NCBI GenBank assembly: GCA_964655955.1
Contig: CAZZPX010000001.1
Span: 1-37,143, forward strand
Source of the DNA: an uncultured Phycisphaerales bacterium
GTDB lineage: Bacteria; Planctomycetota; Phycisphaerae; Phycisphaerales; JAGLTS01
Length of the DNA stretch: 37,143 nucleotides
Direction: 5' to 3'
The notes under the pieces were generated by a model. It saw nothing but the letters and a program-made list of their open reading frames with translations. It did no database searches and was not told where the DNA came from. Each line of letters begins with the position of its first letter. The first letter of the stretch is position 1. This document shows positions 8,511-34,927 of this stretch, one piece after another. Both the position numbers and the translations under genes were made by a program.

Positions 8511-8921
8511 ATGACCCGCCTCACCGCTCTCGCCGCGCTCATCATCATCCTGCTGGCCGTCACGCCTGAGACGCGGGCGACGACCGAGCAGCACGGCTAT
8601 GCCAGCGCCTACGCCCCCGGCGTCATGGATGAGGTCATCCGCTACCGCCTGGACAACAACATCTGGCGCACCCCGCCACCGCGCGACTGGTATCAGGCGC
8701 ATGGCGCAATCGCCGCGATGGACTGCTCGACGGTCGGGCAGATGGCCACTGTCATCGACCCGGCCGGGCGCGAGTACCGTGTGCTCATAGCCGACTGCGC
8801 CGGTGACGACGGGCCGCCGGACAGGTTTAAGAGGATGAACGTCATCCTCGAACTGGACTGGGAACTATGGCAAAGCCTGACGGCCGCGCACGGTCGGCCG
8901 CTGGAGGTAACGCTACAGTGA
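8511..8921 (+). CDS. secreted DPBB-fold (RlpA/3D-domain-like) putative lytic transglycosylase-like protein
   Basis: Signal-peptide-like N-terminus MTRLTALAALIIILLAV. GYASAYAPGVM...GAIAAMDC...YRVLIADCAGDDG resembles the RlpA/3D double-psi beta-barrel pattern. Confidence 0.65.
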   Translation: MTRLTALAALIIILLAVTPETRATTEQHGYASAYAPGVMDEVIRYRLDNNIWRTPPPRDWYQAHGAIAAMDCSTVGQMATVIDPAGREYRVLIADCAGDDGPPDRFKRMNVILELDWELWQSLTAAHGRPLEVTLQ

Positions 8922-9951: not shown

Positions 9952-10064
9952 TTGACGTGCTACTCAACAACCTGGTGGCTCTGGCCTCTTACGGTCTGTG
10001 CCTCGTCGTGGCATTTTGGCTGGGCTGGAAAAGCTGGCACCGGAGGAAAGACGATGAAGAATAG
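9948..10064 (+). CDS. 38-aa membrane peptide
   Basis: ATG at 9948 (ATGA overlap) lies 7 nt after GAGGAGG. MIDVLLNNLVALASYGLCLVVAFWLGWKSWHRRKDDEE. Confidence 0.55.
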   Translation: MIDVLLNNLVALASYGLCLVVAFWLGWKSWHRRKDDEE

Positions 10065-11283
10065 CAAGATTGAATGGACGGACCACACTTTTAACCCCTG
10101 GGTTGGCTGCACGCGCGTTAGCCCCGGCTGCCAGCACTGCTACGCCGAGACGTTGATGGCAGACCGCTACAAGAAGGTGAAGTGGGGGCCGCAGGGCGAA
10201 CGCATCCGCACATCGGCCGATTATTGGCGGCAGCCGTTGAAGTGGAACCGCGAGGCGGCCGCGGCCGGAGAACGCCGGCGCGTGTTCTGCGCATCACTGG
10301 CCGACGTGTTCGAGTATAAGCGAGACCAGTCCATAGACATGCACTTATGGCGCACCGACCTGTTCTCGCTTATTAGAATGACTCCGCACCTCGACTGGCT
10401 GCTCCTGACCAAACGCCCGGAGCTTATCTTTCCCATCGCTCCGTGGTTTGTTGAAAAAATCGAGAAATACCCCAACGTCTGGATCGGCACGTCCGTCGAA
10501 AATCAGGAGCAGGCCGACAAGCGCATTCCAGAACTACTGAATATCCCCGCGGCCGTTCGGTTCCTCAGCGTGGAGCCGCTGCTGGGGCCAGTAGATATCA
10601 CCCAATGGCTCTCATGTGACACATGCCTCGATCGCCGCGTCCACTGGTGCGGGGCAAACCTGGTTGATTGGGTGATCGTCGGCGGGGAGAGCGGCCGGAG
10701 CGCCCGGCCGATGCACCCGGACTGGGTGCGTAGCATCCGGAATCAATGTCAGGAAGCCGGCGTTCCTTTCTTCTTTAAGCAATGGGGAAACTGGCTGCCA
10801 TACGAGTATGTAGAGGGAACGTCATTTTGGAAAACGCCAGACGGTGGAATACATGATGGGCATCTTCTCGATATCACAGACCCCGAAACCGGTGATGTGG
10901 GCAAGGGATGGTTGGACATCGGTGTAGATATAACCCTGTCCGCCTGTCTCTTTCGCAGCGTAGGGAAAAAACCTGCCGGCCGTGTACTGGATGGCATCGA
11001 GTGGAGCCAGTTCCCCTCAGTGAAGGAGCAACCGGCCATGACACAGGAGGCCACTTCCAACGATGAGGCTTCCGTGATAGAGCCGTGGACACGCGCCGAA
11101 CTCATGGCCGCGTTGCGCGAGGCCGGATGGGTGCGCATGAAGGGGGCGACGGGAACGTATGTATCGCCCGACGACCCTGAGGTGCATTTCACTCTGGACA
11201 ACTACCGGCCGGGCTTCGGTGTATCGTGGCGCTACTTCGCAGGGCGAAACGAATTGCCGGCGACGACGCGGCCGCCGTTTTGA
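10054..11283 (+). CDS. phage Gp37/Gp68 family (DUF5131) protein with C-terminal extension
   Basis: MKNSKIEWTDHTFNPWVGCTRVSPGCQHCYAE is the family-typical N-terminus with a C-x6-C-x2-C cluster. ATG at 10054 follows GGAGGAAAG. Confidence 0.85.
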   Translation: MKNSKIEWTDHTFNPWVGCTRVSPGCQHCYAETLMADRYKKVKWGPQGERIRTSADYWRQPLKWNREAAAAGERRRVFCASLADVFEYKRDQSIDMHLWRTDLFSLIRMTPHLDWLLLTKRPELIFPIAPWFVEKIEKYPNVWIGTSVENQEQADKRIPELLNIPAAVRFLSVEPLLGPVDITQWLSCDTCLDRRVHWCGANLVDWVIVGGESGRSARPMHPDWVRSIRNQCQEAGVPFFFKQWGNWLPYEYVEGTSFWKTPDGGIHDGHLLDITDPETGDVGKGWLDIGVDITLSACLFRSVGKKPAGRVLDGIEWSQFPSVKEQPAMTQEATSNDEASVIEPWTRAELMAALREAGWVRMKGATGTYVSPDDPEVHFTLDNYRPGFGVSWRYFAGRNELPATTRPPF

Positions 11284-13246: not shown

Positions 13247-14647
13247 ATGAAAAAAGCAACTGCAGAACTATTCACGGGCACGAAGTCGGTCAGGCTGGAA
13301 GACCTTCCAGAGGAGGCCTGGCGCATCATCGTGGGGGACACGGGCGACGGCCGCGACAGGCTGAGCAAGCTGTTTGGCGCGGTCGGCTGGCTGTATCGCT
13401 GCGTCGATATCCGCGCCGGCGCGGTGGCCAATATGCCCTGGGCTATCCGCAAGGGCGAGACGGTCATCATGACCGATGAGGATGACGCGCCGGAACGCTA
13501 CGAGTGGCTTGCGGATTTACCGGCGATGCTCTACCGGACAGAGGCGGCGCTCGCTCTGGCCGGCCGCGCCTACTGGTTTAACGAGCGCAACTATATGCGC
13601 ACGCTGAATGTGCGCTGGTTGCGGCCGGATAGCGTCAAGCCGGTCATCGACAAGGATAGCGGCTTGACCGGTTTTACCCGCGCCATCGACGGCATGGAAA
13701 AGCCGCTGGAACTGGCCGACATCGTTTACTTCTGGCTTCCTGACCCGTTCGTGGAAATCGGCCCGGCCGAGCACTTTCCCGGCAAGGCGGCGCTCGGCGC
13801 GGCCGGTGTGCTGGCCAACATGGATGCCTTTATCGCCGGCTACTTCGACCGGGGCATGATTAAAGCGACGCTGTTGAAATACCTGACGCCGATGAGCAAG
13901 GATGAAGGCGAGCGCGTGCGCGAGTGGTGGCGGCGCGTGGCCACCGGCATCAGAAACGCATTCACCACCGAGGTTGTGCGCGGTGATTTCGAGGCGCTGA
14001 CTATCGGGGAAGGCTTGCATGACCTGCAGAACACGGCGCTCACCGTCGAACAGCGTGAGGCCATCTGTACGGCGCTGGGCGTGCCGCAGAGCAAGGTTAC
14101 GGCGAACGCGGCCAATTTTGCGACGGCCAATCAGGATGCGCGGGCGTTCATTCAGGACACGATTGCGCCGGAATGCCGCCTGATTGAATCGGCCGTCAAC
14201 CGGCAATTGCTCGGCCCGGCCGGGCTGCGTCTGGAGTTCAAGCCCGACGAATTGCCGGTCATGCAGGAAGATGAGGCGGCGCGGGCGGCGTCGCTGGAGG
14301 CGTTGGTCAGGGCTGGCATGTCGCTGGAAATGGGCATAGCCGTGCTGGGCTATGACCTGCCGGATGATATCGAGCTACGGGAACCGGCCGCGGCCACGCC
14401 TCCGCAGTTGCTACCCTTCACCGGGCGACAGGAACAGACACAACCGGACGGTAACGCGCCGGATGACGGCGAGCGCGTCGAGGAAACGCGCCGCTTCCTG
14501 CGCTGGGCAAAGAAGCGCGAGAATCCCGACCCCGACCAGTTTGAGAGCATGGTGCTCAGCCAGGCCGAGAAGGTTGCATTGTTGGGGGACGCTGATAGCG
14601 ATGATGCCCCCTTTCACGGCGGTCACGACTGGCAAGGCTATCCGTAA
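13247..14647 (+). CDS. portal protein
   Basis: 466 aa, immediately after TerL and before a MuF-like gene. Acidic C-terminal tail. Confidence 0.85.
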   Translation: MKKATAELFTGTKSVRLEDLPEEAWRIIVGDTGDGRDRLSKLFGAVGWLYRCVDIRAGAVANMPWAIRKGETVIMTDEDDAPERYEWLADLPAMLYRTEAALALAGRAYWFNERNYMRTLNVRWLRPDSVKPVIDKDSGLTGFTRAIDGMEKPLELADIVYFWLPDPFVEIGPAEHFPGKAALGAAGVLANMDAFIAGYFDRGMIKATLLKYLTPMSKDEGERVREWWRRVATGIRNAFTTEVVRGDFEALTIGEGLHDLQNTALTVEQREAICTALGVPQSKVTANAANFATANQDARAFIQDTIAPECRLIESAVNRQLLGPAGLRLEFKPDELPVMQEDEAARAASLEALVRAGMSLEMGIAVLGYDLPDDIELREPAAATPPQLLPFTGRQEQTQPDGNAPDDGERVEETRRFLRWAKKRENPDPDQFESMVLSQAEKVALLGDADSDDAPFHGGHDWQGYP

Positions 14648-15347
14648 CCCGGACGGCCGTCAGATGCGGCGCTACGAGCGCGAGTTCGAGGCGGCGGTCA
14701 CGGCGGCGCTCGATCGCCTGCGCCGGGCGATTCAGCGGGATATCTCAGACGACAATGTGCAGGACATGATTGCCCGCCTGAATGACGACGCGGTGACGCG
14801 GCCGTTTCAGGACGCGATTGTGACCGAGTTGGAGCGCGTCGCCCTGGCCGGCTCGGAGTTCGGCCGCCTGCAGGTGGAAGGGGATGTGTTCGGCGTGAAG
14901 GCGCTTGAAATGACGGCGTGGGATTTGGCCAACAACGCGGCTGCGCAGTGGGCGATTGGTTACGGCTATGACCTCGTGCGCGGGCTGCTGGACACGACCC
15001 GCGACCGCCTGCAGATTGAGATTGCCGAGTACATCAACAACTCGCAGACCATTGGCCAGCTTATCGAGCGCATTACGGCCGGCGGCGTGTTCGGCCAGCC
15101 GCGGGCGCACGCGATTGCCGTGACGGAGGTGACACGCGCCTACGCGCAGGGCAATTTGGCGGCGTGGCGTGCGTCGGGCGTCGTCGAGGGCAAGCAGTGG
15201 AACACGAACAACGATGAACTGGTATGCCCGGTGTGTGGCCCGCTGGCCGGGCAAGTGGTCGCGCTTGATGAGCCGTTTCCCGGCAATATTGCCGCGCCGC
15301 CGGCTCATCCGCGTTGCCGGTGCTGGATTGTCCCGAAGGTGACCTGA
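14601..15347 (+). CDS. head morphogenesis protein, SPP1 gp7 / Mu F family
   Basis: C-terminal CPVCGPLAGQVV...PPAHPRCRCW is the family signature. The start is uncertain (ATGATG at 14601 overlapping the portal gene, or ATG at 14664). Confidence 0.85.
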   Translation: MMPPFTAVTTGKAIRNPDGRQMRRYEREFEAAVTAALDRLRRAIQRDISDDNVQDMIARLNDDAVTRPFQDAIVTELERVALAGSEFGRLQVEGDVFGVKALEMTAWDLANNAAAQWAIGYGYDLVRGLLDTTRDRLQIEIAEYINNSQTIGQLIERITAGGVFGQPRAHAIAVTEVTRAYAQGNLAAWRASGVVEGKQWNTNNDELVCPVCGPLAGQVVALDEPFPGNIAAPPAHPRCRCWIVPKVT

Positions 15348-16175: not shown

Positions 16176-16222
16176 CCGGGCGCGAAGAGACTGATAGTCC
16201 TCTTCGCGCCCGGTTTTGTTTT
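16176..16222 (+). terminator. strong rho-independent terminator immediately upstream of the capsid gene
   Basis: Perfect 14-bp stem CCGGGCGCGAAGAG / CTCTTCGCGCCCGG (16176-16189 / 16200-16213), 10-nt loop, then TTTTGTTTT (16214-16222). Confidence 0.85.
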
Positions 16223-16232
16223 GCGAGGTTCT

Positions 16233-18026
16233 ATGCACGCACTAAAGATTTTGGAGCAAGACGACAAGACCGCCATCCTCGGCGGTTATGGCGTTGTGTT
16301 CGGCGGTTCTGACCTGGAGGGGGAAACGTTCACGCCGGACACTGACTATATGCTCGACCTCGTGCCGGAAAAGCCTGTCTATATCGACCACTCTGAGCCT
16401 ACCTTCGTCGCGGCCGACGGCAAGACGATAAAGCTGGCCGGGATAGATGATCCGGTCGGCCGCGTGTTGGAAGTCACTCCCGACGACGTGGGGCTGTACA
16501 TGCGCCTGCAGGTGGAAAAAGCGGGGCGCTACTGGGAGATTGTCGAGCAGATGGTTGGCACGGGGAAGGCGGGGTTGTCATCTGGCACGGTTGGCCATCT
16601 GGCCCGACGCGCCGGCAAGACGATCACCCGTTGGCCTATCGTGGAGGAGAGTATCACGCTAACCCCGGCCGAGCCGCGCACGGTTGGCGTGGAACGGTTG
16701 AAGGCGCTGGTCGAATTAAACCCTGACCTAGAGGCGGTGCTCCCAGAGGCGGCCGGTAAAACCGCGACGGATGCCGCGACGGAAGGGGCCGAGGAGACGG
16801 CCGCCGGGCGACCGGATATCAAGATTGTTGAATCTGAAACGGAGAAAGATGAAATGAGCGAATTGAACCAGACGCCCGGCGCGGCCGATGACCTGCAGAA
16901 CAAGGTCGATGCCTTGTCGGAGAGCGTCAACAAGATTATGGGGCTGTTGGAAGGCAGCCCGGCGCTGAAGCGAGCCGGTTATACGACCGACGACGGCGGC
17001 GCGGCCGACCCGACGCACAAGAGCTTTGGCGATTTCCTGCTGGCTGTGAAGCGCAATGACGGCAAACGTCTAACCACGATTTACGGCGCGACGAAGGACA
17101 TGGCCGAGGGCAGTGGCGCTAGCGGCGGCTATCTCGTGCCCACCGAGTTCCATGCCCAGCTTTTGCAGGTCATGGCCGAGCAGTCGCCCATCTACGCCCG
17201 CGTGTTCAAGCAGCCGGTCAACACTGACGCGGGCGAGTATCCCGCGCTCGACCAGTTCGCTAGCCCGTCGGCCGGCAGTGGCGACACCGCTATGGCCGGC
17301 GGCGTGAAAGCCAAGAGCAAGGCCGAGGGAGCCGCGCTTGATGAGACTGAGCCGAAGTTCACTGACTTGACCTACCGCATCAACAAGATTGGCGGCTACG
17401 TCGAGGTGTCGAATGAACAGATTGCCGATTCCGCGATTTCTGTCGAAACGCTGCTGCGCCGGCTGTTCGCTATTGCGATTGGCTCCAAGAACGAGCGCAA
17501 CATCCTGCTGGGCAGTGGCACGGGCGAGCCGTTGGGCATCATGAATGCGGATGCCACGATTGGCGTAACAACCGCGACCAATGACGCATTTGCCTACGCT
17601 GACGTGCTGGCGATGTGGGCGAAGTTCAAGAACGTCTCGGGCCAGACGCCGGTGTGGATTTGTCACCCGTCGCTGATTCCGCAGATTGGCACGCTGGCCG
17701 TGGCTTCCGGCTCTCCGGTCGTGTGGGCCGGCAACCTGGCGTCCGGTCAGCCGTCTACGCTGCTGGGCTACCCGATTCTGTTCAGCGAGCACATGTACCA
17801 GTGGAAGGGCGACGACATGCTGCTGGCTGACCTCGGCTCTTACGTCCTGTTCGAGCGCCAGGCGTTGTCCATCGCTTTCAGCGAGCACGCCGCCTTCACC
17901 TCTGACAAGGGGACGTGGCGCTTCACGAGCCGCAACGACGGCAAGCCGTGGGTGAAGAAGCCTATCACGCTGGCCGACCCGACGGGCAGCTACACGGTCA
18001 GCCCGTTCGTCTATCACAACGACTAA
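16233..18026 (+). CDS. in-frame fusion of HK97-type prohead protease, scaffold-like linker and HK97-fold major capsid protein
   Basis: N-terminus GGYGVVFGG...VYIDHSE...AGLSSGT is S78/U35-protease-like. The middle is an acidic/coiled-coil segment. The C-terminus ...SGGYLVPTEFHAQL... and downstream is HK97 MCP-like. An internal in-frame ATG at 16854 has GGAGA 8 nt upstream. Confidence 0.9.
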   Translation: MHALKILEQDDKTAILGGYGVVFGGSDLEGETFTPDTDYMLDLVPEKPVYIDHSEPTFVAADGKTIKLAGIDDPVGRVLEVTPDDVGLYMRLQVEKAGRYWEIVEQMVGTGKAGLSSGTVGHLARRAGKTITRWPIVEESITLTPAEPRTVGVERLKALVELNPDLEAVLPEAAGKTATDAATEGAEETAAGRPDIKIVESETEKDEMSELNQTPGAADDLQNKVDALSESVNKIMGLLEGSPALKRAGYTTDDGGAADPTHKSFGDFLLAVKRNDGKRLTTIYGATKDMAEGSGASGGYLVPTEFHAQLLQVMAEQSPIYARVFKQPVNTDAGEYPALDQFASPSAGSGDTAMAGGVKAKSKAEGAALDETEPKFTDLTYRINKIGGYVEVSNEQIADSAISVETLLRRLFAIAIGSKNERNILLGSGTGEPLGIMNADATIGVTTATNDAFAYADVLAMWAKFKNVSGQTPVWICHPSLIPQIGTLAVASGSPVVWAGNLASGQPSTLLGYPILFSEHMYQWKGDDMLLADLGSYVLFERQALSIAFSEHAAFTSDKGTWRFTSRNDGKPWVKKPITLADPTGSYTVSPFVYHND

Positions 18027-18056: not shown

Positions 18057-18497
18057 ATGGGAAAGAAACTCAGTGAAGCCGTTGCCGTGGTCGCCTGCAT
18101 CGACCCGGATGCTTACGGAACCGGCGCTCAGACCTCGGACTGGATTGACATGTCGAAGTTCGAGCGGGTGCTGTTCATTGTCCAGGCGGGCACGCTGGGC
18201 TCGTCGGCTACGTTGGATTTCAAAGTCCAGCAGTCGGCGGCCGACAGCGGCACGAATCCGGCCGATATCAGCGGCAAGGCCATCACGCAATTGACCGAAG
18301 CGGGGACGGATAGCGACAAGCAGGCTCTGGTCGAGGTTCGCGCCGACGAACTGACCGCGGGCTATCGCTACATCGCGGGCGTCCTGACCGTCGGCACGGC
18401 CACGTCTGACGCCGGTGTGCTGGCGATTGCGTCCGAGCCGAACTATGGCCCGGCGTATGACTACGACCTGGCCTCGGTTGATGAGATTGTCGCCTGA
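18057..18497 (+). CDS. hypothetical head-associated protein (possible decoration/cement protein, by position)
   Basis: RBS tAGGAGAgaaaccatcATG. 146 aa, directly after the capsid gene. Confidence 0.75.
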   Translation: MGKKLSEAVAVVACIDPDAYGTGAQTSDWIDMSKFERVLFIVQAGTLGSSATLDFKVQQSAADSGTNPADISGKAITQLTEAGTDSDKQALVEVRADELTAGYRYIAGVLTVGTATSDAGVLAIASEPNYGPAYDYDLASVDEIVA

Positions 18498-19144
18498 TGA
18501 TTCACGTGGTCACACCGTTCTCCCGTCCTGAGAACGCGCTTGCGCTGCTTAGGCATTTATCGGGCCAGGGGGTTGCCCTGACGTGGCACCCCCTGGTATC
18601 CGATATCCCCTTTCCGGCCGGATGCGTTCGTGACTGGGTGCTTCCTCTGGCGGTCGACGTGCCGGCGGGGGTTGACCCATTCTGCTGCAAGCTGCGGGCG
18701 TTTGTGGAAAGCGGCCGCATTCAGGACGGAGAACGGTATTGCGTGCTGAATGACGACGACCTGTACGCGCCGGGCGTTCTGGCGGCCGTTGACGCCATGC
18801 CTGAGCGCATCGTGGTCGTGAGCATGTTGCGCGGCCAGCGCGTTCCGGCCTACGTCGCCAATGGCCACTACCATCCGACGGGGCCGCTGACGGCCGCGCC
18901 GGACAGGATGCACGTCGGCGCGATAGGCGTCGAGCAGTATTTCGTCATGGGCGAGATATTCCGGCTCGCTGACTTCCGTCTCGACCGGCCGGCCTGTTGT
19001 GACGGGCTGGTGGCCGAGTGGCTGGCGGCGACGTACCCGGATGATATCCGCTATGAACCGGAACTCTATGTGTTGTTCAACCGGCTTGAGCCGGGCAGGT
19101 GGGCGGTAGATTATGACGAAACTGTTGGCCTTTTGCCCGCTTAA
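18497..19144 (+). CDS. GT-A fold glycosyltransferase-like protein
   Basis: N-terminus MIHVVTPFSRPENALALL (Rossmann-like strand plus SRPEN) and a NDDD (DxD-like) motif. ATGA overlap with the upstream gene. Confidence 0.65.
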   Translation: MIHVVTPFSRPENALALLRHLSGQGVALTWHPLVSDIPFPAGCVRDWVLPLAVDVPAGVDPFCCKLRAFVESGRIQDGERYCVLNDDDLYAPGVLAAVDAMPERIVVVSMLRGQRVPAYVANGHYHPTGPLTAAPDRMHVGAIGVEQYFVMGEIFRLADFRLDRPACCDGLVAEWLAATYPDDIRYEPELYVLFNRLEPGRWAVDYDETVGLLPA

Positions 19145-19859
19145 TCCCAACTATCCGCGCCTGTGGGGGCGCACGGTGCAGAGCATCTTCCGGCTGGAGC
19201 ATGACGGGCCGCTGGACTGGCTTTTCGTCGCTAACGACAACCCCCACGAGCGGCCGTATGACAATATTACCCATAACTACGAGCGTGCGCGTCGGGCGGC
19301 GCTGGAAGGCGGCTATGACTTCCTGCTCACGATAGAGAGCGACATGGTCGTGCCGCCGGGCGCTATCGACCAGCTGCTGGCCTGTGACGCGGACGTGGCT
19401 TATGGCCTGTACGTGTTCCGTCACGGCCGCCGGACGTGGAGCGCCTACACGACGCTCGAGGAGCGGCATGGCGTGAGCCTGTCCGAGGACGCGCCACGCG
19501 CTCGTCGGGAATGGGGGAAGGTTATCGACGTGGCCGGTGTGGGGTTGGGCTGTGCCCTTATCAGTCGCAAGGTATTGCGGACTATCGACTTTCGCATGGG
19601 TGACAACGACAGGGTGTCGAATGACTGGCAATTTGCCCTCAACCTGCAGGAAGCGGGCTACAGCCAGCGGGCGCACCTCGGCGTTGTCTGCGGGCATCAC
19701 AGTTATAAGCCCTGGCCACAAATCATCTGGCCCGACCCGGACGCGCAGACCCTTTACCGCGTGGAATCGCTAGGGGACGCGCCGACGGTTGCGCCGGGCG
19801 AGAGGATGAGCGTGCGCGTGGGCATGGGGGTCAACAGCATTCACAGGGAAGCGGTATGA
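19113..19859 (+). CDS. family-2-like glycosyltransferase
   Basis: YDFLLTIESDMVVPPGAIDQLL (DxD-type ESD) and VAGVGLGCALISRKVL resemble GT2 motifs. Overlaps the upstream gene by 32 nt. Confidence 0.65.
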   Translation: MTKLLAFCPLNPNYPRLWGRTVQSIFRLEHDGPLDWLFVANDNPHERPYDNITHNYERARRAALEGGYDFLLTIESDMVVPPGAIDQLLACDADVAYGLYVFRHGRRTWSAYTTLEERHGVSLSEDAPRARREWGKVIDVAGVGLGCALISRKVLRTIDFRMGDNDRVSNDWQFALNLQEAGYSQRAHLGVVCGHHSYKPWPQIIWPDPDAQTLYRVESLGDAPTVAPGERMSVRVGMGVNSIHREAV

Positions 19860-26024: not shown

Positions 26025-27557
26025 ATGCTAACGGTCCAGATTTACGCGGATTCCTCCCAAACGAAATTACTGGCCGACCCGAGTAGCCGGGCCGAGGGCT
26101 TGCGCTTCACGACCAACGAGCGCGGCTTTGCGGTGCTGACTATCACCCGCGTCATTATGTCGCTGGCCGATTCCTTTGAGGTCTACGAGTGGCCGGGCAC
26201 GCCGCACGTGGTCGTGACGGATTCGAGCGGCATGACCATCTGGGAGGGGCGGGTCGAGGATATCAGCATCGTTCGGGGCGGTGTAGCGCTGGCCGCGTTC
26301 GGCTATAGCCGGGCGCTCGAGGACGTGCCCTATACGGCGCTGTGGTCTTACACGCGCACGGCCGGATGGACGGAGGTCACCGAGCAGGAACGGGCAACGG
26401 CCGTTCCGTCGGCTTACGAGATGGACAACAACAACCGGATTTACATCGCTCCGAAAAAGGGCGAGACGTATCCGGGCGGCGCGACCAATATCGGCGCAAT
26501 GAGCTATGCCGCGCCGCATAACGGCAGCCGGACTATTACGAACTTCTCGGCCAGCTATAACCTGCTTTTGCCGTCTGGCTGGACATTGCGCCTCTATTCG
26601 GCCACGCGTGATTTCTCGACGGTTTCAACCGAGGCGACAGTGAACGCGACCGGCTCGGCGCAGTCGGGCACTTGGAACGTGACGCTGGCCAATCCACGGC
26701 CGCGCGTCTATGTCGCCATTACGAACGCGGGCGGCAGCGGCAGTTCTATCAGCGATGAGACGGGCGTGAATTTCGCCCGCCTGACGGATATCCGCATGGC
26801 GTCGACCACGGCCGCGACGGTGACGGCCTCGGCCATTGCCACGGCGCTGGTCACCTACGTCAACGGCGTCAACGGGGGGCAATTGAGCGCGAGCACGTCG
26901 CTTATCGAGGCGACGACGACCGACCTGCGCGATGAGGTCTACGAGGATGAGTATCCGGGCGACTTGCTCTACCGTTTGGCGCTGTTGCACGGCTACGAGT
27001 GGGGCGTGTGGGAAGGGCGACGGCTTCACTTCCGGCCGCTGGCCTCGGCCGGCCGCCACTGGTACGTCGACGTGGTCGGCGGGCTGGAAATGCAGCGCAG
27101 CCTGGAGAACATCCGCAATAGCGCCTATGCCGTTTACCGCAACGCGGCCGGGCGCATCGTGCGTACATTGGCCGCCGGTGACAAGGCCAGTCAAACGCGC
27201 TATGGGCTGGTACGGCGCGGCTATCTGACGGCGCAGACCACGAGCGCGACCGAGGCGGCCGCGCACCGCGACGCATGGCTCGCAGACCGCTCCATGATGC
27301 AGGACAGGGCGCGAATTGACTTTGTCCGCGTCTTCGATGAGACCGGGGCGCCCTATCCGCTGTACTACGTCCGCGCCGGCGACCGCGTGACCATGCGCAA
27401 CTTGCCGCCGACGCTTTCGGGCAACGTCGACCGCATTCGCACCTTCCTCGTGGGCGAGACGGTTTACGACGCCGACCGGGATGAGATTAGCGTCTCGCCC
27501 AGCGTGCCGACGCCGACGCTGGCTACGCTGCTGGCCCGACGGGAGGCGGGTATCTGA
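26025..27557 (+). CDS. minor tail protein (tail-tip/hub position)
   Basis: 510 aa, second gene after the tape measure gene. Assigned by synteny only. Confidence 0.7.
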   Translation: MLTVQIYADSSQTKLLADPSSRAEGLRFTTNERGFAVLTITRVIMSLADSFEVYEWPGTPHVVVTDSSGMTIWEGRVEDISIVRGGVALAAFGYSRALEDVPYTALWSYTRTAGWTEVTEQERATAVPSAYEMDNNNRIYIAPKKGETYPGGATNIGAMSYAAPHNGSRTITNFSASYNLLLPSGWTLRLYSATRDFSTVSTEATVNATGSAQSGTWNVTLANPRPRVYVAITNAGGSGSSISDETGVNFARLTDIRMASTTAATVTASAIATALVTYVNGVNGGQLSASTSLIEATTTDLRDEVYEDEYPGDLLYRLALLHGYEWGVWEGRRLHFRPLASAGRHWYVDVVGGLEMQRSLENIRNSAYAVYRNAAGRIVRTLAAGDKASQTRYGLVRRGYLTAQTTSATEAAAHRDAWLADRSMMQDRARIDFVRVFDETGAPYPLYYVRAGDRVTMRNLPPTLSGNVDRIRTFLVGETVYDADRDEISVSPSVPTPTLATLLARREAGI

Positions 27558-30247
27558 TGTCAGACGGGCCGGAAATTACCCTGCTGAATGACCTTGTCTC
27601 GTGGTGGTCGCTGAATGAGGCCAGCGGCACGCGCAACGATTCTCACGGCGGCAATCACCTGAGCGATGTGAACACCGTCGGCTCGGCTATGGGCAAGGTG
27701 GGCAACGCGGGCGACTTCGTGCGCACGAACAGCGAACGTCTGGAACTGAGCGACAGTTCCGACTACGACGTGAGCGGCAGCTTCACGATTTCCGGCTGGT
27801 TTTACAAGACGACCACGGGCGCGGCGGTACTGGCGTCCGTATGGAATGAGGACGGCGTTGATGAGCGCGGCTGGCGCGTGCAGGCCAACACCGAGACGAA
27901 TATTCGCCTGCAAACGTCCCGTGACGGCACGTTTGGAACGACGCTCAATACCGCCAACGCTACCATCTCGAACGGCACGTGGTACTGGTTTTGCGCGTGG
28001 TATGACGCCAGCGATGACAAGCTCTACATGTCCATCGACAACGCGACGCCGGTCGCGTCGGCTTCGACCACGTCGGCGGTCTACCAGGCTCCGGGCAAGC
28101 TCATCATCGGCGGGCAAGAGACCGGTAGCGGCGGCTCGCAACACTGGGGCGGCTTGATTGATGAGGTCGGTTTCTGGACCCGCGTCCTGACCTCTGACGA
28201 ACGGACTTGGCTCTACAACAGCGCCAGCGGCCGCGCCTATAGCGATCTCGACCAGGGCGGCGGGCAGGAATACCAGCAGGCCGTTGACGGCGCGGTGACG
28301 TTCGCGGGCGTGACGGTGAAACGCGCCGGCAAACCGGCCGCGGGCGAGGTTTCCTTTGCGGGTGAGACGGTTCGGCACACGGGCAAGGCGCTGGCCGGGG
28401 CGGTGACCTATGCAAGCGACTTGCTTCGCAACGTGGCAAGAAAGCTCGCCGGGGCGGTTTCGTTCGCGGGCGACGCGCTGCGCCAGAAGGTAGTGGTGGA
28501 CGCGGGTGAGGTTGCCCCCAATAACCATCAGTACGTCCGGTATGCGAACAATTCCAACAGCTACACGCTGAGCAATTACGCCGTGCCCGCCGGGGCCAAT
28601 AAGGTGCTGGCGGTGACGGTGAGCCTGATGCTCTCGAACGAGAACGGGGTAAACATTAACGGCGTGTCGTTTGACGGCGATGCGCTGACACCGGCGGTTG
28701 CGTCTACGGGTACATCTACCAGTCGCTCGTACTACATAGGAACCTGGATTCTGGTCAACCCGGCGACCAAGACGGGCAATATCGTGGTCTCGCTGACCGG
28801 CAACCATGCCGGGTGCATCATCTCGGCCGTGACGCTGACGGGAGTTGACCAAACGACGCCGTTTTCCCATACCGGCGTGACCAGTGTCACGCTAGATAGC
28901 ACCTCGTTCGATGAAAACGACCCGCCGTATGGCGGAGACTGGACTGGCACGCCCGGCGATTACTACCTGTATGCCGTCGCGTCCAACGCCAGCAACAACC
29001 CAACGTGGGCATGGGATGATTTTGGCGGCACGGCCGAACTGTACGACCTGAATAACGGATCGTCTAGCAACAACGAAGTGGCCGGTTCGGGCGCGAGTGG
29101 AGCGCCATCCGGGGGGTGGGCGTGGGTTACGTCCGACCCCGTCACCCCGCCGCGCACGGTGGGCGTGGCTGTGGGATTCGTTGCGGCGGCCGTCAGCCAG
29201 GAATACGAGAAGGAAATTGGCGGCGCGGTGACGTTTGCGGGCGTGACCATCCGGCTACCCAACAAGGCGTTGGCGGGCGCGACCACGCCTGCGGGAGAAC
29301 TCTCGCGGGATATCGGCAAGCTGGTCGCCGGTGCTGTGAGCCTCGCCGGTAGCATCGTGAGGGACAGCACGCACAGTCTGGCCGGGGCGGTATCGGCCGC
29401 GGGCGACGTGGTACGCCAGACGGCCAAACCGCTGGCCGGCGCTTGGTCGGCCGCGGGCAACATCTCGCGCCGCGTCTCGAAACGATTGGCCGCGGAGTTG
29501 TCCTTCGACGGCACGATAGAAGAGGCGCGGGCGTTCCTGTACGCGCTGGCCGGGTCGCTTTCCTTCGACGGCGGGGTCAGGCTGCAACCGTGGAAGGTCT
29601 TGCGCGGCGCGTGGTCGGCCGCGGGCAACATCTCGCGGCAGACGATGAAGCCGCTGGGCGGGGCGTGGGCGGCGGCCGGGACTGTCTCGCGGGCGGTGAC
29701 CAGGTCGCTCAGCGGGGCGCTGGCGCTGGCCGGTAACGTGAGCCGCCATGTGACTGCTCGTGTGTCGGGCGCGGTGGCGTTCACGAGCACCGTGACGCGA
29801 CAGATGGCCGTCTCGCTGTCGAGCGCGTTGAACCTGAGCGGGCTGACCGAAACGGCTCGCTTTCGGTTTGTCGCGCTGGCCGGGGCGCTAACCTCGGCGG
29901 GGTCGCTCGTGCGCCACGTTGCGACCAGTCGCGTATCCGGCGCGGTGGCGTTTAGCGGTGAGATTGTGCGGCGTGTCTCGGTGCTGCTGTCCGGCTCGCT
30001 GGACATGGCCGGGGCGACCGGCCGCTTTATCACGCGGGCGCTGTCCGGCACGCTGGCGACGGCCGGGACGGTGGCCCGGCGCATTTCTCGGCAATTAGGT
30101 GGGGCGGTCTCGTGGGTCGGGTCTGTTCTGCCTGTGCACTATCCCGGCGGTTTCGCGCCGGGCATTGTCCATCTGACGGCGCGGGCACGTTCGCTCGTGC
30201 TAACAGCGCGAAAGCGAATTTTTACGCTGACCGCAAGAAAAAAGTAG
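27557..30247 (+). CDS. tail fibre/receptor-binding protein: N-terminal LamG (concanavalin-like lectin) domain plus two arrays of 18-aa repeats flanking a globular domain
   Basis: LVSWWSLNEASGTRNDSHGGNH...FTISGWF...LIDEVGFWTRVLTSDERTWLYN is typical of the LamG_3 domains found in phage fibres. Repeats have the form (L)AGAVSFAG-x3-R-x5. Confidence 0.85.
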   Translation: MSDGPEITLLNDLVSWWSLNEASGTRNDSHGGNHLSDVNTVGSAMGKVGNAGDFVRTNSERLELSDSSDYDVSGSFTISGWFYKTTTGAAVLASVWNEDGVDERGWRVQANTETNIRLQTSRDGTFGTTLNTANATISNGTWYWFCAWYDASDDKLYMSIDNATPVASASTTSAVYQAPGKLIIGGQETGSGGSQHWGGLIDEVGFWTRVLTSDERTWLYNSASGRAYSDLDQGGGQEYQQAVDGAVTFAGVTVKRAGKPAAGEVSFAGETVRHTGKALAGAVTYASDLLRNVARKLAGAVSFAGDALRQKVVVDAGEVAPNNHQYVRYANNSNSYTLSNYAVPAGANKVLAVTVSLMLSNENGVNINGVSFDGDALTPAVASTGTSTSRSYYIGTWILVNPATKTGNIVVSLTGNHAGCIISAVTLTGVDQTTPFSHTGVTSVTLDSTSFDENDPPYGGDWTGTPGDYYLYAVASNASNNPTWAWDDFGGTAELYDLNNGSSSNNEVAGSGASGAPSGGWAWVTSDPVTPPRTVGVAVGFVAAAVSQEYEKEIGGAVTFAGVTIRLPNKALAGATTPAGELSRDIGKLVAGAVSLAGSIVRDSTHSLAGAVSAAGDVVRQTAKPLAGAWSAAGNISRRVSKRLAAELSFDGTIEEARAFLYALAGSLSFDGGVRLQPWKVLRGAWSAAGNISRQTMKPLGGAWAAAGTVSRAVTRSLSGALALAGNVSRHVTARVSGAVAFTSTVTRQMAVSLSSALNLSGLTETARFRFVALAGALTSAGSLVRHVATSRVSGAVAFSGEIVRRVSVLLSGSLDMAGATGRFITRALSGTLATAGTVARRISRQLGGAVSWVGSVLPVHYPGGFAPGIVHLTARARSLVLTARKRIFTLTARKK
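28281..28487 (+). repeat. first array of ~54-bp (18-aa) coding repeats, about 4 units (approximate bounds)
   Basis: AVDGAVTFAGVTVKRAGKP / AAGEVSFAGETVRHTGKAL / AGAVTYASDLLRNVARKL / AGAVSFAGDALRQ. Confidence 0.7.
29218..30130 (+). repeat. second array of ~54-bp (18-aa) coding repeats, about 17 units (approximate bounds)
   Basis: GGAVTFAGVTIRLPNKAL AGATTPAGELSRDIGKLV AGAVSLAGSIVRDSTHSL AGAVSAAGDVVRQTAKPL AGAWSAAGNISRRVSKRL ... GTLATAGTVARRISRQLG GAVSWVG. Two units (near 29441 and 29601) are nearly identical at the DNA level. Confidence 0.75.
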
Positions 30248-30869: not shown

Positions 30870-31181
30870 ATGGCCTCCAGCATCGCCCGAGAAGTTTGGG
30901 AAGGCGCTCAGTTCCAGGGCGTCGATGAGAAAATCGCGTACACGCTGGACGTGTCGCGGTTGGGTACGCCGTCGTCGCCGGTCATCGTCGTGAAAGACGA
31001 GGCCGGTGACGACGTGACGACCGCCGTCATGCCGGTGAATGTTCCGACGCTGCAGGGCGACAGGATTCTATTGTCGCCGCTGTATGGGCTGACGGCCGGC
31101 GTCCGTTATCGGGTCGAGGTGAAATATACCATCGACGGCAATGTACTGGAATCCTATTTCTATGTGCAGGGGCAGGAATAG
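30870..31181 (+). CDS. hypothetical protein (tail/fibre module)
   Basis: 103 aa, tightly packed, beta-rich sequence. Confidence 0.65.
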   Translation: MASSIAREVWEGAQFQGVDEKIAYTLDVSRLGTPSSPVIVVKDEAGDDVTTAVMPVNVPTLQGDRILLSPLYGLTAGVRYRVEVKYTIDGNVLESYFYVQGQE

Positions 31182-31184
31182 CCG

Positions 31185-31484
31185 GTGATAACCCAGGCGA
31201 CAACCGTTCTACAGGTCGCCAGCGTCATCGTGTTCGCCATTACGACCGCCGCGGCCGTGTGGGGCATGAAGCGACGGCCGCGGCGATGGTGGCTGTTCCT
31301 GCCACCTGTGTTGTTCGCGGCCGGCGGGGTGATTTATTACGCCCTTGCCTTCACAGGGCGGCTGTCGTCGGCTGAGTTTTTGCTGTGGGGTGCCGCACAC
31401 CGGTTCGTGGGCGCGGTGCTCATAGGAGGGGCGGTCGTGGCATTGGCGGCCGTTATCGTAACGGTGCATGGCGATGACGAATGA
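31185..31484 (+). CDS. multi-pass membrane protein (holin candidate 1)
   Basis: GTG start. 3-4 hydrophobic segments and a charged C-terminus (HGDDE). Confidence 0.65.
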   Translation: MITQATTVLQVASVIVFAITTAAAVWGMKRRPRRWWLFLPPVLFAAGGVIYYALAFTGRLSSAEFLLWGAAHRFVGAVLIGGAVVALAAVIVTVHGDDE

Positions 31485-32073
31485 GACCCGACTGATAATC
31501 GAGGCCGGCTTTTTCATCATCGCGATGACCGTCATCATTTTTTTGGTAGTCAGGGCTGCTATCAAGGCGCGGCACCGGTCGCCGGCCGCGATTGACATCT
31601 ATCGCCGGTTGGTTGACGAATCGGCGCGAGACCTGAATGCCCGTATGGATGAGTATGACGCGCGGCAGGCGCGGGACAGGCAGGAGATTGACCGTTTGCA
31701 CGCTGACCTTGCAGCGTGGAAGGCCTACGCACGCCAGTCGTCGCAACACAGCCAGCAGCTCGTGGATATGCTGCATGAGATGGGGTTCCAGGGAGAGATT
31801 CCGCCGCCGCCGGAACCCCCCTCTACGCCGCACTACCAGCTTCCGGGCAGTAATTCCGAGAATGACCGGCGGCTGGCGGCTGAATTAGCGGATGCGTTCA
31901 ATCTGGAGGAGCTGGAGGATCTGGCCTTTCATCTGGGCATAGCGGCGGACACTATTCCCGGCGACACCGTGCCGGTGCGGGCGCGCGAGCTAGTGAGGTA
32001 TTGCCGGCGGCGCGGGATGACGGAGCGATTGCGCAAAACGGCCGCGGAGAAGCGGCCGAGGAGGAACGAATGA
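31468..32073 (+). CDS. membrane-anchored coiled-coil protein with C-terminal EAD-like (effector-associated/Death-like adaptor) domain
   Basis: N-terminal TM segment (LIIEAGFFIIAMTVIIFLVV), a coiled coil, a Pro-rich linker, then LAAELADAFNLEELEDLAFHLGIAADTIPGDTVPVRARELVRYCRRRGMTERL...RP. Confidence 0.65.
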   Translation: MAMTNETRLIIEAGFFIIAMTVIIFLVVRAAIKARHRSPAAIDIYRRLVDESARDLNARMDEYDARQARDRQEIDRLHADLAAWKAYARQSSQHSQQLVDMLHEMGFQGEIPPPPEPPSTPHYQLPGSNSENDRRLAAELADAFNLEELEDLAFHLGIAADTIPGDTVPVRARELVRYCRRRGMTERLRKTAAEKRPRRNE

Positions 32074-33470
32074 GCGAGTACACAGTAGGGCAGGGCGGCG
32101 ACTTCCCGACATTGGCGGCCGCGGCGAAGGCAGTCAAGCCGGGCGATGTGGTGCGCGTCATGCCCGGCGTCTACCGCGAGGTGCTGGTTTGTGACGTGCC
32201 CGGCGTGACGTGGTACGGCGAGGGCGACGCGACCATAGACGGCGGTTGGGACGGCAAGACCAAGACCAGCTCGTGGCAGACGCAACTGGCCATCACCGCG
32301 CCGGGTGTGACCGTTGACGGCCTCGTTGTGCGTAACTGCCCCGGCCGGGCGGTGGGGGTCATGGCCGATGATGTGCTGTTTCAAAATTGCCTGCTCGAAG
32401 TCACCTATCGCGGTGCGATTTTGGTCGGCGATTCGTCGAGCGCGGCAATCGAAAATGTGGTCATCCGCGGCAACACGATGCGACGCATGTCGCTGTCGTG
32501 GGTGGTCGGCGACCGGGGCGCGAACGGCCGCAGCGTCAACGGTAGTTTCAACGTCCAAAACGTCAGGGCCGGTCTCATCGAGCACAACATCCTCCATGAC
32601 GGCTACGGCGAGGGTATCAACATCGGCCGCGGGTCCGACGGCGTGACGGTGCGCGAGAATACGGTCTATTCGACGGCCCACGTGCTCATCTATGTCAACC
32701 GGGCGCAGCGCACGAACATCATCGGCAACCGGCTGTACCACATCCCCAACCCGCTTTACGGCGGGCCAAAGGGCGACCGCATGAGCGCGGCCATCGTTAT
32801 AGGCGATGAGGGCGGGCCGATTACGAGCCAGCACCCGGCGTCCGAGGGCACGATCATCCGTGACAATCTCGTGGTCAACGCCGGGGCGCTGTTGCAGGTG
32901 CGCAACAACGCCAACAATTACGACACCCAGCTACTCGACACGGTCATCGAAAATAATACGTTCGTGGCCGGGCCGAGCACGCGGGACGGCATCATTATCC
33001 AGAGCAACCAGCGCGGGCGGCCGCACCGCGACAACGTCTTTCGGCGCAACGTCATCCACTTTGACAACGCGCCGGCCGGGGCTGATATCGGCTCGCACGG
33101 GCAGGGGAGCGGCGTGGCGTTTGAGAGCAACGCATGGAGCGGCAAGCCGCCGAAAGCCATGCAAAGCGCCGGTGATATCTACGGCGACCTGATGCTGGCC
33201 AATCCGGGCGCGAATGACCTGGGGCCGGTGGGGTTACGTCTGGACAACTACCGGCCAGCGGCCGGGTCGCCGCTGGGCTTGCCGGTGGGCTGGATTGGGG
33301 CGCTCGCGCCCGCGGTCGTGGAACCGGAAGAGCCGCCGCCCGACCCGGAGCCTGTGCCGCCGGTTGTGGACGCGGCGGCCGTGCGCGAGCAGTTGGCCGT
33401 CATCCGGCTGGCGGCGGATGAGATTGAGCGATTGGTTGAGGCGGCCGCGCGGCCGCAAATTAAGGAATAG
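32070..33470 (+). CDS. right-handed parallel beta-helix (pectate-lyase-fold/DUF1565-like) protein; putative polysaccharide depolymerase
   Basis: GGDFPTLAAAAKAVKPGDVVRVMPGVYRE N-terminus, then repeated ...I.GN.. beta-helix rungs. ATGA overlap after AGGAGGAACGA. C-terminal Pro-rich and helical tail. Confidence 0.8.
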   Translation: MSEYTVGQGGDFPTLAAAAKAVKPGDVVRVMPGVYREVLVCDVPGVTWYGEGDATIDGGWDGKTKTSSWQTQLAITAPGVTVDGLVVRNCPGRAVGVMADDVLFQNCLLEVTYRGAILVGDSSSAAIENVVIRGNTMRRMSLSWVVGDRGANGRSVNGSFNVQNVRAGLIEHNILHDGYGEGINIGRGSDGVTVRENTVYSTAHVLIYVNRAQRTNIIGNRLYHIPNPLYGGPKGDRMSAAIVIGDEGGPITSQHPASEGTIIRDNLVVNAGALLQVRNNANNYDTQLLDTVIENNTFVAGPSTRDGIIIQSNQRGRPHRDNVFRRNVIHFDNAPAGADIGSHGQGSGVAFESNAWSGKPPKAMQSAGDIYGDLMLANPGANDLGPVGLRLDNYRPAAGSPLGLPVGWIGALAPAVVEPEEPPPDPEPVPPVVDAAAVREQLAVIRLAADEIERLVEAAARPQIKE

Positions 33471-33485
33471 ATAGGAGAAAAAATC

Positions 33486-33797
33486 ATGGAAGCAAATCTG
33501 TTGGTAGGCATCGCGGGTATTCTGTTGTCGCTGGGGTTTGGCTACATCCCCGGCCTGAGCGACTGGTACAACGCGCTCGACGGCGTACGCAAGGCGCAGG
33601 TCATGGCGGCGCTGCTGCTCGTGTCGGCCGTGGGCGTGTTTCTGGCCGGGTGTTACTCGCCGTGGCAGGCGGTCACGTGCGATGAGGCCGGATTTTGGGG
33701 CCTTGTTGAGTTGCTTGTGACGGCGCTGATTACCAATCAGGCGACGTATCAAATCGCGGTGCGGCCGTCGAAATCGGCCGCGCCTGAAGCTGTTTAG
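33486..33797 (+). CDS. membrane protein (holin candidate 2)
   Basis: RBS tAGGAGaaaaaatcATG. Three hydrophobic segments. Confidence 0.7.
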   Translation: MEANLLVGIAGILLSLGFGYIPGLSDWYNALDGVRKAQVMAALLLVSAVGVFLAGCYSPWQAVTCDEAGFWGLVELLVTALITNQATYQIAVRPSKSAAPEAV

Positions 33798-33832: not shown

Positions 33833-34927
33833 GTGTCCCCTCCTGCACCGGCGGCCGTTAACCATATCATGATAGATGCACTCAACGACATTCGTACTCG
33901 CGCCGGACTGCCGGCGCTCGCGCCCAACGTGCAACTCGCTAACGCGGCGCAGCGGCACGTGGTCGACCTGGCCAGCGGCCGCGTTGACCTGAATAACTCG
34001 CACGTTGGCAGCGACGGGTCGACGGTGGCCGGCCGCGTGACGGCCACGGGCTATCCGCTTCAATCCTGCCTTGAGATGACCGGATGGGGCTGGGATGGCG
34101 ACGCGACGCGGGCGGTCGATTATTGGATGCAGTCACAAACGCATTGGCCGATTATCCACGACGCTACCATGACGGAAGCAGGATGGGCCTACCTGTATCA
34201 GCCGGGGGCGCAATGGGGTCACTATTGGGTTGTGGTGCTTGCGCGGCGTGTGGGGCAACCTGACGCGCCTCAGGGCAATCCTGAGCCGCCTCCTACGGTC
34301 TATGTGCCAGTTGTGACGGGGGGGCGGGAAGTGCCGCCGTCGGGGGCTGTTGACCTGTTGCCGTATCTGCGGGGAGACGGCCGCGCGTACATGGTGCGTC
34401 ATCCGTCAGGCGCTCAAGAAAAATTCCGCACGGTCGATTTGGGCGGCGGCCGCTGGCTGCAACTCAAAAATTCGCAATGGGAGGAGTTCCGCGCCGATGG
34501 CCAGTACATCTATCGCGGCGCGGATACGAGCGCGGGCGACGGGCAGTATTACCGCCAATTCGAGGACGGCAGCGAGTGGGCGCGATGGTGTCCGCGATAC
34601 ATGACCATCGGCCAGTCGTGGGCCGCGCCGGTCCCGCATACGGTACAGACGTATGACAAGGGCGACTGCCGGCCGGTTGACCATCACCGCAACGGCCGCG
34701 CGACGAACGCGCTGTCGCTGGCGGCGCGTTACGAGCGGATGACGTTTAGCGGTGTTGTGATTGAGGATGTGATCGAACTGCGAACGCACACCGGCGAGCG
34801 CATGTTCTGGGGGCGCGGCTGGGGATTATGTGCGTGGAAGTCAGCATGGGGCAGTAGCGAGGTTGTCCAGGTACTACCGCCGCATGAGGCCGACAATGAG
34901 CCTGAGCGGGGGTGTTTCGGGCCGTAA
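33833..34927 (+). CDS. CAP/SCP/PR-1-like domain protein with an unassigned ~200-aa Trp/Gly/Arg-rich C-terminal domain
   Basis: NDIRTRAGLPALAPNVQLANAAQRHVVDL...SHVGSDGSTVAGRVTATGY...DYWMQSQTHWPIIHD fits the CAP (YkwD-like) pattern. The start is uncertain (GTG at 33833 or ATG at 33869). Last gene of the rightward operon. Confidence 0.75.
   Translation: MSPPAPAAVNHIMIDALNDIRTRAGLPALAPNVQLANAAQRHVVDLASGRVDLNNSHVGSDGSTVAGRVTATGYPLQSCLEMTGWGWDGDATRAVDYWMQSQTHWPIIHDATMTEAGWAYLYQPGAQWGHYWVVVLARRVGQPDAPQGNPEPPPTVYVPVVTGGREVPPSGAVDLLPYLRGDGRAYMVRHPSGAQEKFRTVDLGGGRWLQLKNSQWEEFRADGQYIYRGADTSAGDGQYYRQFEDGSEWARWCPRYMTIGQSWAAPVPHTVQTYDKGDCRPVDHHRNGRATNALSLAARYERMTFSGVVIEDVIELRTHTGERMFWGRGWGLCAWKSAWGSSEVVQVLPPHEADNEPERGCFGP

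Follow-up and report, generated by a model that had tools for sequence, protein, structure and literature searches.

The DNA analysed here (the window) is a stretch of 37,143 nucleotides from contig CAZZPX010000001.1 of assembly GCA_964655955.1, deposited under an uncultured Phycisphaerales bacterium, and Pfam scans of its open reading frames (ORFs) identified it as a 37-kb temperate siphovirus-type genome, called temperate because it encodes an integrase and a LexA-like repressor. Within it, a gene for a small membrane protein with three predicted transmembrane segments (the 3-TM partner) is followed by a gene for a protein composed of one N-terminal transmembrane (TM) helix, a coiled-coil stalk, a proline-rich linker and a C-terminal effector-associated domain of family EAD7 (the EAD7 protein), and the two genes constitute a conserved, translationally coupled phage module. 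An original prediction, made from the sequence alone, had described ORF 31468-32073 on the forward strand as a phage-encoded lysis-cassette membrane protein ending in an effector-associated or Death-like adaptor domain. The ORF is real, with exactly the translation then given, and the phage setting was borne out by the presence of portal, Mu-F, capsid, tube, tape measure, fibre and integrase genes. Coordinates of all features are collected in Table 1.

Identity of the C-terminal domain was established by searching Pfam, which returned a full-profile match to PF19960 (EAD7) with an E-value of 2.2e-17 and a score of 63 bits (the gathering cutoff being 32), in which positions 3-62 of the 62-position profile align with residues 138-197 (residue numbers of the EAD7 protein refer throughout to the 201-aa form). 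The module quoted in the original prediction corresponds to residues 136-197, and its assignment there to the effector-associated domains (EADs) proved correct far beyond chance once this search, which had been proposed as a check, was run. Homologues of the protein all carry a precomputed PF19960 annotation, and no catalytic family was matched by the EAD7 protein in Pfam or NCBIfam. Modelling of the domain alone, with 64 domain sequences, gave a predicted local distance difference test (pLDDT) value of 93.5 and a predicted template modelling score (pTM) of 0.83, with helices at model positions 2-16, 19-28, 41-54 and 58-68. As expected of an EAD7 domain, the module is small, all-alpha and C-terminal, and forms a 70-residue four-helix bundle. 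A six-frame hidden Markov model (HMM) search for a second EAD7 copy in the window phage and in related contigs L001-L008 found none, leaving one copy only, and no NTPase core was detected among the scanned window proteins; the usual context of these domains, a paired copy on a core NTPase, is therefore lacking inside the phage. EADs have been described as small non-catalytic adaptors, one copy of which sits on the NTP-dependent core of a conflict system and others on effectors, and homotypic binding that couples core to effectors was predicted in the same work, which classes EAD7 among the EADs that recruit effectors (Kaur, Burroughs, Iyer and Aravind 2020, PMC7159879). EAD7 also occurs N-terminally on STAND-FGS and TRADD-N proteins (2021, PMC8195603).

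The Death-like part of the original label was less well supported than the EAD7 part. Foldseek queries with full-length and domain models against PDB and BFVD ranked a caspase-9 CARD, a Fas-FADD DD and a bacterial CARD at the top for the EAD7 model, with E-values of 1.2-7 and template modelling scores (TM-scores) of only 0.4-0.53, and Death-fold membership is not supported by these comparisons: the similarity is not significant (E > 1, TM-score ~0.5), and the modelled domain has four helices, not six. A PDB sequence-profile search with the EAD7 domain retrieved no related solved structure, only spurious designed-repeat matches. The best viral structural neighbour of the model was BFVD A0A2H4P853, a 63-aa protein of Pseudomonas phage ventosus (TM-scores 0.65/0.76, root mean square deviation 2.0 Å, probability 0.95, but E 0.73 and 16% identity), possibly an EAD-like domain that stands alone in a phage available in culture.

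The full-length protein was modelled with AlphaFold2 from a 26-sequence family alignment (mean pLDDT 89.5), and in this model the compact C-terminal bundle spans residues 128-194. The stalk helix is predicted with pLDDT above 90 and contains the coiled-coil string quoted in the original prediction (residues 50-87); it has a heptad register in which 58% of the a/d positions are hydrophobic, and the stalk is probably oligomeric. The linker has no secondary structure in the model (pLDDT 55-75) and is predicted to be flexible, and P112, P113, P115, P117 and P118 within it are invariant in the close clade. An R-x-R-D-H/R motif is conserved family-wide in the middle of the stalk (residues ~66-73, window ~31660-31690, columns ~83-90 of alignment A3), a helix that is variable elsewhere, and might be where the acidic tail of the 3-TM partner makes contact.

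Lysine and arginine residues are more numerous after the TM helix than before it in 32 of the 33 family members, and the N-side flank has a mean charge of -0.7, the C-side flank one of +1.3. Because the basic flank lies on the C-terminal side of the TM helix, the positive-inside rule predicts an N-out/C-in topology that would place the stalk and the EAD7 domain in the cytoplasm; topology and holin calls in this work were made with simple heuristics (positive-inside rule, hydropathy). The predicted orientation bears on whether the protein could be an Rz-like i-spanin, an inner-membrane anchor whose periplasmic coiled coil, together with a partner lipoprotein in the outer membrane, would bring about membrane fusion at lysis. 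An N-terminal TM helix, long helices, a Pro-rich linker, a length of ~200 aa, a late-operon position and a host that is probably diderm would all suit such a protein. The predicted topology, however, is opposite in all but one member, the C-terminal domain is an EAD7, cytoplasmic in all known contexts, and a heuristic scan for an o-spanin turned up neither a lipobox ORF between 29 and 37 kb nor, in nine homologous genes, any conserved out-of-frame ORF embedded within them. The i-spanin assignment, rejected on predicted topology and the lack of an o-spanin, is highly improbable.

Every homologue of the EAD7 protein begins MTNETR or MSNETR, and because of this the second ATG, at 31474, is preferred to that at 31468 and is probably the true start. 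From this start the gene overlaps the upstream 3-TM gene by 11 nucleotides (nt), as it does in relatives, and its stop codon overlaps the ATG of the beta-helix gene that follows (ATGA), which is preceded by a strong Shine-Dalgarno sequence, GAGGAGGA. No sense-strand promoter was found flanking the module, terminator-like sites around it are not enriched over shuffled sequence, and the G+C content at third codon positions (GC3) of the EAD7 gene, 0.74, equals that of its neighbours. Because it has no promoter of its own and no excess of terminator sites, is joined to its neighbours by the 11-nt and ATGA overlaps and the Shine-Dalgarno sequence, and matches them in GC3, the EAD7 gene is, judged from these features, a late-operon gene; its identification as a moron was rejected on the missing promoter and terminator excess, the translational coupling and the matching GC3.

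These expression signals also enter into a reading of the module as a prophage effector of abortive infection or superinfection exclusion, that is, a membrane-disrupting, EAD7-tagged executioner that would join a host EAD7-STAND network and kill the lysogen upon sensing another phage, much as sensor-activated membrane effectors of the Bab/Agp type do. Such a role would follow the 'EAD principle', by which an EAD on a non-core module marks an effector recruited to the core ATPase (PMC7159879), the phage is temperate, and small membrane effectors with homotypic signalling motifs have precedent (bioRxiv 10.1101/2024.11.07.622273). Yet coupling of the gene within the late operon, with no promoter or terminator of its own, makes lysogenic expression unlikely, and the gene has been kept with the structural and lysis block across deep divergence and is not variable like a moron, so that an abortive-infection effector is considered quite improbable.

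A gene of the 3-TM family lies directly upstream of the EAD7 gene and overlaps its start in every context sampled, namely the window clade, contigs L013, L014, L027-L033, L036 and L037 and one JGI contig, the contexts of distant members often being short contigs. The upstream partner proteins are 94-128 aa in length and form one family with the motif PP..WA..G..FY.L...LWGAAHR and invariant A45, Y52 and R73 (alignment A5); throughout, they have three hydrophobic segments, basic residues in the loop that follows TM1, and an acidic tail at the C-terminus. From these features the 3-TM partner is predicted to be N-out/C-in and class-I-holin-like. Class I holins such as lambda S105 are N-out/C-in proteins of ~100 aa with three TM domains, and the 3-TM partner has this shape (small, three TM domains, charged C-tail) by a hydropathy heuristic only. 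It lacks the other marks of the class, an adjacent endolysin or a known holin family: searches of Pfam, NCBIfam, PADLOC and PHROGs gave no match to it and no holin family.

The wider family was defined by profile search. A word-indexed search with the EAD7 protein returned four close clusters only, at 50-54% identity, and a domain-only search of the same kind gave one match, owing to the database-size penalty on the E-value; it was replaced by an exhaustive HMMER search with the domain profile, which 3,564 representative proteins match. The best 150 of these 3,564, together with some added later, include about 30 clusters that have the architecture of the EAD7 protein although their mutual identity is below 50%: in 160-211 aa, a TM helix at the N-terminus leads into a helical region and, in most cases through a PPxP linker, to EAD7 at the C-terminus. 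These clusters occur only in uncultured phage contigs. The EAD7 domain is the best-conserved part of the family, with F144, E148, L188, R196 and P197 invariant. In an HMMER search seeded with the phage-type profile, the phage EAD7 domains were 44% identical within the group and 31% identical to other EAD7s, and their nearest neighbours were mostly each other; they appear to be a coherent, old subfamily. Among deposited phages (50,697 genomes, searched by tblastn and also by nucleotide search) no match was found to the EAD7 protein, the 3-TM protein or the cassette. PHROGs returned only weak, non-EAD7 matches for the EAD7 protein, PADLOC no match for this protein, its partner or its neighbours, and NCBIfam nothing informative for the two module proteins.

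Table 1. Features of the two-gene module, its neighbourhood and the phage genome (window coordinates).
Feature	Coordinates	Strand	Description
3-TM partner	31185..31484	+	99-aa membrane protein; hydropathy; three hydrophobic segments, basic loop KRRPRR after TM1, acidic C-terminal tail
TM - coiled-coil - Pro linker - EAD7 protein	31474..32073	+	199 aa from homologue-supported start; 201 aa from ATG 31468
Single N-terminal TM helix	31492..31551	+	Residues ~9-28, hydropathy 2.8
Stalk helix	31579..31779	+	Residues 38-104, 67 residues, continuous; predicted coiled coil ~100 Å long
Pro-rich linker	31780..31848	+	Residues 105-127, PPPPEPP at 112-118
EAD7 domain	31849..32058	+	Residues about 128-197; compact four-helix bundle
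Candidate Gp77-type fibre-tail adaptor	30870..31181	+	103 aa, homologous to 101-aa protein of contig L001
Pel9A/NosD-like right-handed beta-helix protein	32070..33470	+	466 aa, no signal peptide, Pfam Beta_helix 3e-11; relatives Pel9A-like_beta_helix
Second holin-like membrane protein	33486..33797	+	103 aa, 2-3 TM, hydropathy; homologues L001_105, L005_108, L012 2640-2942, L036, L037
CAP/SCP-domain protein	33833..34927	+	364 aa, no signal peptide, Pfam CAP 8.4e-16
Window phage genes			Integrase, LexA-like repressor, DUF5131, terminase homologue, portal, Mu-F, HK97-type capsid, tail tube, tape measure, LamG fibre

The module is flanked upstream by a 103-aa protein that shares a Y.LDWS motif with a protein of L013 matching Pfam Gp77 at 7.8e-27; by this link, made by inspection only, it is probably a Gp77-type adaptor with which the tail-fibre genes end. 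In relatives, genes matching Pfam Gp80 and Gp77 (fibre I and the fibre-tail adaptor of Ralstonia podophage GP4) stand directly upstream. The earlier placement of the EAD7 gene between two holin-like genes was loosely right, in that the 3-TM gene adjoins it whereas the second holin-like gene lies beyond the beta-helix gene. Contig L027 carries the same 3TM-EAD7-beta-helix-TM block preceded by an unrelated tail module, and because the block is kept there it is taken to move as a unit. The CAP protein recurs at the end of the cassette, often after variable genes (L001 12484-12921, L005 6450-6890, L012 4499-4933, L027 14978-15415), and weakly matches NCBIfam DalA (49.7 bits, below cutoff); DalA is a peptidoglycan-binding divisome lipoprotein (PMC10470522). 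The CAP protein could itself be an unconventional cell-wall-directed lysis protein.

Assignment of this region to a lysis cassette, also part of the original prediction, is a plausible positional reading given the holin-like neighbours. Pfam, run on essentially all sizeable window ORFs, nevertheless detected no canonical domain of an endolysin (lysozyme, amidase, transglycosylase, peptidase), and because of this the assignment stays unproven. A Peptidase_M23 gene lies two genes downstream of the EAD7 gene in one distant relative only. Elsewhere in the window, 8511-8921 encodes a small protein with an N-terminal signal or signal-arrest-release (SAR)-like segment and a GYASAYAPGV motif, which recurs in L037 at 16179-16490 (-); its identification as a double-psi beta-barrel (DPBB)-type muralytic enzyme or transglycosylase was dropped, with no support from Pfam or PDB.

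In distant members, the gene after the EAD7 gene encodes a beta-helix protein (L031 and the JGI contig), a CBM_4_9 protein (L013, L036 and L037) or a sulfatase with a twin-arginine translocation (TAT) signal (L032), and a 76-aa ORF also occurs in this place. The next gene is thus nearly always carbohydrate-active, usually without a signal peptide, and together with the tight coupling through the ATGA overlap and bins of metagenome-assembled genomes (MAGs) that point to floc-forming wastewater bacteria, this would suit a holin-like device for export or anchoring of the downstream glycan-active enzyme, by which, for example, an exopolysaccharide matrix might be degraded at burst in the manner of type 10-like holin-dependent secretion. 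The downstream family nevertheless varies while EAD7 is constant, so that no constant cargo is evident, and no EAD7-like element was seen in the beta-helix protein; an export device is judged improbable.

Cellular relatives of the domain were compared next to the phage family. Top multi-domain matches among cellular EAD7s were nSTAND1 NTPases, a bDLD1 protein, EAD1 and proteins with up to six tandem EAD7 copies. Four of these (P0007, P0008, P0011 and P0016) combine 4-6 tandem EAD7s with N_BRCA1_IG Ig-like, bDLD1 or nSTAND1 domains, which suggests multivalent platforms. The closest non-phage EAD7 found is that of P0130 (contig L034), a 450-aa AAA_35 (STAND-like) ATPase, at 49% identity over 65 residues (E 1e-15), which is about as close to the window EAD7 as the phage family proteins are to each other; its gene adjoins housekeeping genes on a contig of 60% GC. 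Contig L025 is a low-GC island with several EAD7-bearing proteins, one of them with a GTPase-like region (by inspection). A 428-aa cellular membrane protein of L026 (705-1991) has, by eye, an N-terminal TM helix, an EAD7-like region, more hydrophobic segments and a long Thr/Pro-rich region, suggesting that membrane-anchored EAD7s of a different architecture also occur outside phages.

These relatives give substance to an immune decoy, in which the membrane-tethered and probably oligomeric EAD7 would bind the EAD7s of activated host STAND-type ATPases and either cap them or pull them to the membrane, blocking recruitment of EAD7-tagged effectors. Such a protein would parallel, in prokaryotes, the DED-, CARD- or PYD-only proteins of viruses. 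The phage domain is a genuine EAD7, it is predicted to be cytoplasmic, and as the phage has a single copy, any hetero-partner would need to come from the host. In cells, EAD7s are carried by nSTAND1 and AAA_35 ATPases, and in P0130 a plausible host-type partner exists. The EAD7 gene is also co-transcribed with structural proteins, and bacterial STAND receptors recognise late proteins of this type (PMC13581612). Known decoys, however, are soluble and domain-only, whereas here the TM helix, the long stalk and the obligate 3-TM partner are all conserved; recent mimicry would nest in diverse host clades, whereas the phage EAD7s are an old, coherent subfamily; GC3 is fully ameliorated, with no sign of recent capture; a host EAD7 system is only presumed; and PADLOC gave no match. 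A decoy of this kind is rated somewhat unlikely but is a serious rival to the reading favoured below. A membrane or lysis role is preferred to a simple soluble decoy because of the obligate 3-TM pairing and the coherent, long-kept phage subfamily.

In the reading favoured here, at a probability of roughly 40%, the 3-TM partner and the EAD7 protein would together form a membrane-permeabilising, holin-type device whose clustering, and hence timing, is governed by EAD7 contacts. The EAD7 protein would cross the inner membrane once, leaving only a very short N-terminus outside, and in the cytoplasm a coiled-coil stalk of ~100 Å and a flexible proline-rich tether would carry the terminal EAD7, whose proposed activity, in line with the family literature, is the binding of other EAD7s. 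The pair would be made late, with the late operon, from a module that stands where the tail-fibre genes give way to a block of genes for holin-like proteins and proteins directed at the cell envelope. On the cytoplasmic face of the membrane, EAD7-EAD7 contacts, among copies of the phage protein itself and possibly also with host EAD7-bearing STAND ATPases, would then set when the pair clusters. This holin-type reading is favoured because of the coupled holin-like partner, the operon position, the mobility of the block, the coherent subfamily and precedents among holin accessory proteins, and the location behind the tail fibres, which is canonical for lysis genes, beside the second holin-like gene and envelope-directed proteins that lack signals, lends it further support, as does the Peptidase_M23 gene of the one distant relative.

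Several observations weigh against it. No canonical endolysin lies in the window or, in most relatives, beside the module; the gene after EAD7 is glycan-active or glycan-binding (beta-helix, CBM_4_9, TAT-signal sulfatase) and in this looks closer to a depolymerase or an accessory protein of the fibre than to a muralytic enzyme; and neither module protein matches any holin family. To our knowledge, no experiment has demonstrated that any EAD7 family member associates with itself, and all other EAD7 contexts known to us are immune systems, from which a purely lysis-internal role would be a departure. The decoy and holin ideas could be merged, with assembly of a host EAD7 signalosome serving as the trigger for the phage holin. 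It is possible, though doubtful, that these are the first virus-encoded EAD adaptors and that the membrane-tethered EAD7 engages a host STAND-EAD7 signalosome, either neutralising it or using its assembly as the trigger for the adjacent holin, which would lyse the cell before abortive infection is complete.

The window is probably a complete phage genome, circularly permuted relative to L001. Pointers to its host all lead, with low confidence, toward Gram-negative wastewater bacteria: related contigs are binned in MAGs of Nitrospira sp. (two, by NCBI names) and Thauera sp. (one 6-kb contig, by GTDB), with phage genes only and no host flank, and the closest TerL relatives are phages of Betaproteobacteria, at 45-48% identity only. 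A search of the window phage for a tRNA or att site as a host clue found none. Further features of the genome were recorded. About 27 tandem 15-nt units at 148-557 suggest a pentapeptide-repeat ORF, and in the relative L001 a gene at 14277-14840 (-) matches Pfam Pentapeptide. Diverged repeats of 54 nt (18 aa) following the pattern LAGAVSxAGxxxR are numerous in the LamG-domain tail fibre (27557-30247, 896 aa). Within the head-tail structural block, ORF 19113-19859, which the unassigned ORF 18497-19144 adjoins, weakly matches Glyco_trans_2_3 (E 0.0011, below cutoff) and may relate to virion glycosylation. A 443-aa DUF5131 protein (9952-11283, E 5.6e-88) is encoded upstream of the terminase genes, and a bacterial PH-domain protein in the early region (2955-3422).

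The EAD7 family itself is known; the architecture of TM helix, stalk and EAD7, the obligate 3-TM partner and the viral setting are apparently undescribed, and the searchable literature on EAD7 or effector-associated domains together with phage describes no phage-encoded EADs. EADs and bacterial Death-like domains are proposed to wire bacterial programmed-death and immune complexes and are possibly forerunners of animal apoptotic adaptors, and we know of almost no EAD that has been studied experimentally and of no EAD7 structure. The phage protein, with 200 aa and one obvious partner gene, offers a tractable handle on EAD7-EAD7 binding. It would represent a viral antagonist of immunity of a new type, or else a new way to build a lysis timer from a cooperative adaptor domain.

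Compared with cellular EAD7 systems, the phage domain is alike in its full-length profile match and in being small, all-helical, non-enzymatic and terminal; it differs in being phage-encoded and fused to a TM helix and stalk, in having a 3-TM partner and no second EAD7 or NTPase core in its operon or genome, and in belonging to a subfamily of its own. Viral Death-fold decoys, such as the vFLIPs of herpesviruses and poxviruses and the pyrin-only proteins of poxviruses, are, like cellular CARD-only and PYD-only proteins, soluble and essentially domain-only, with a six-helix fold. The phage protein resembles them in that a virus encodes a homotypic adaptor domain of host immunity and joins no enzymatic effector to it, but it is membrane-anchored and long-stalked, and its four-helix EAD7 has no significant similarity to CARD or DD. 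The Bab/Agp and fungal HET-S-type systems (bioRxiv 10.1101/2024.11.07.622273) follow the same logic, in which an element for homotypic signalling is linked to a small module that targets the membrane; in those systems, by contrast, the element, which an NLR or sensor also carries, is an amyloid-forming peptide and the genes are host defence genes with a sensor next door, whereas the phage has no sensor. The lambda i-spanin Rz shares the N-terminal TM helix, long helices, Pro-containing linker, size and neighbourhood; the topology predicted for the phage protein is the opposite of that of Rz, its C-terminal domain is of cytoplasmic type, and the heuristic scan revealed no partner o-spanin. Among holin-associated proteins, XhlA of Bacillus PBSX offers a bitopic comparison. 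The holin gp11 of mycobacteriophage D29 has a cytoplasmic coiled coil that controls oligomerisation and lysis timing, and single-TM N-out/C-in proteins with cytoplasmic tails have been found beside multi-TM holins (PMC9671378). None of these three carries a recognisable adaptor domain, no sequence relationship to them was detected, and no adjacent canonical endolysin was found here; what the EAD7 protein shares with D29 gp11, the single-TM accessory proteins and XhlA is a bulky charged or coiled cytoplasmic C-terminal part, a multi-TM holin-like neighbour and a place at the end of a late operon.

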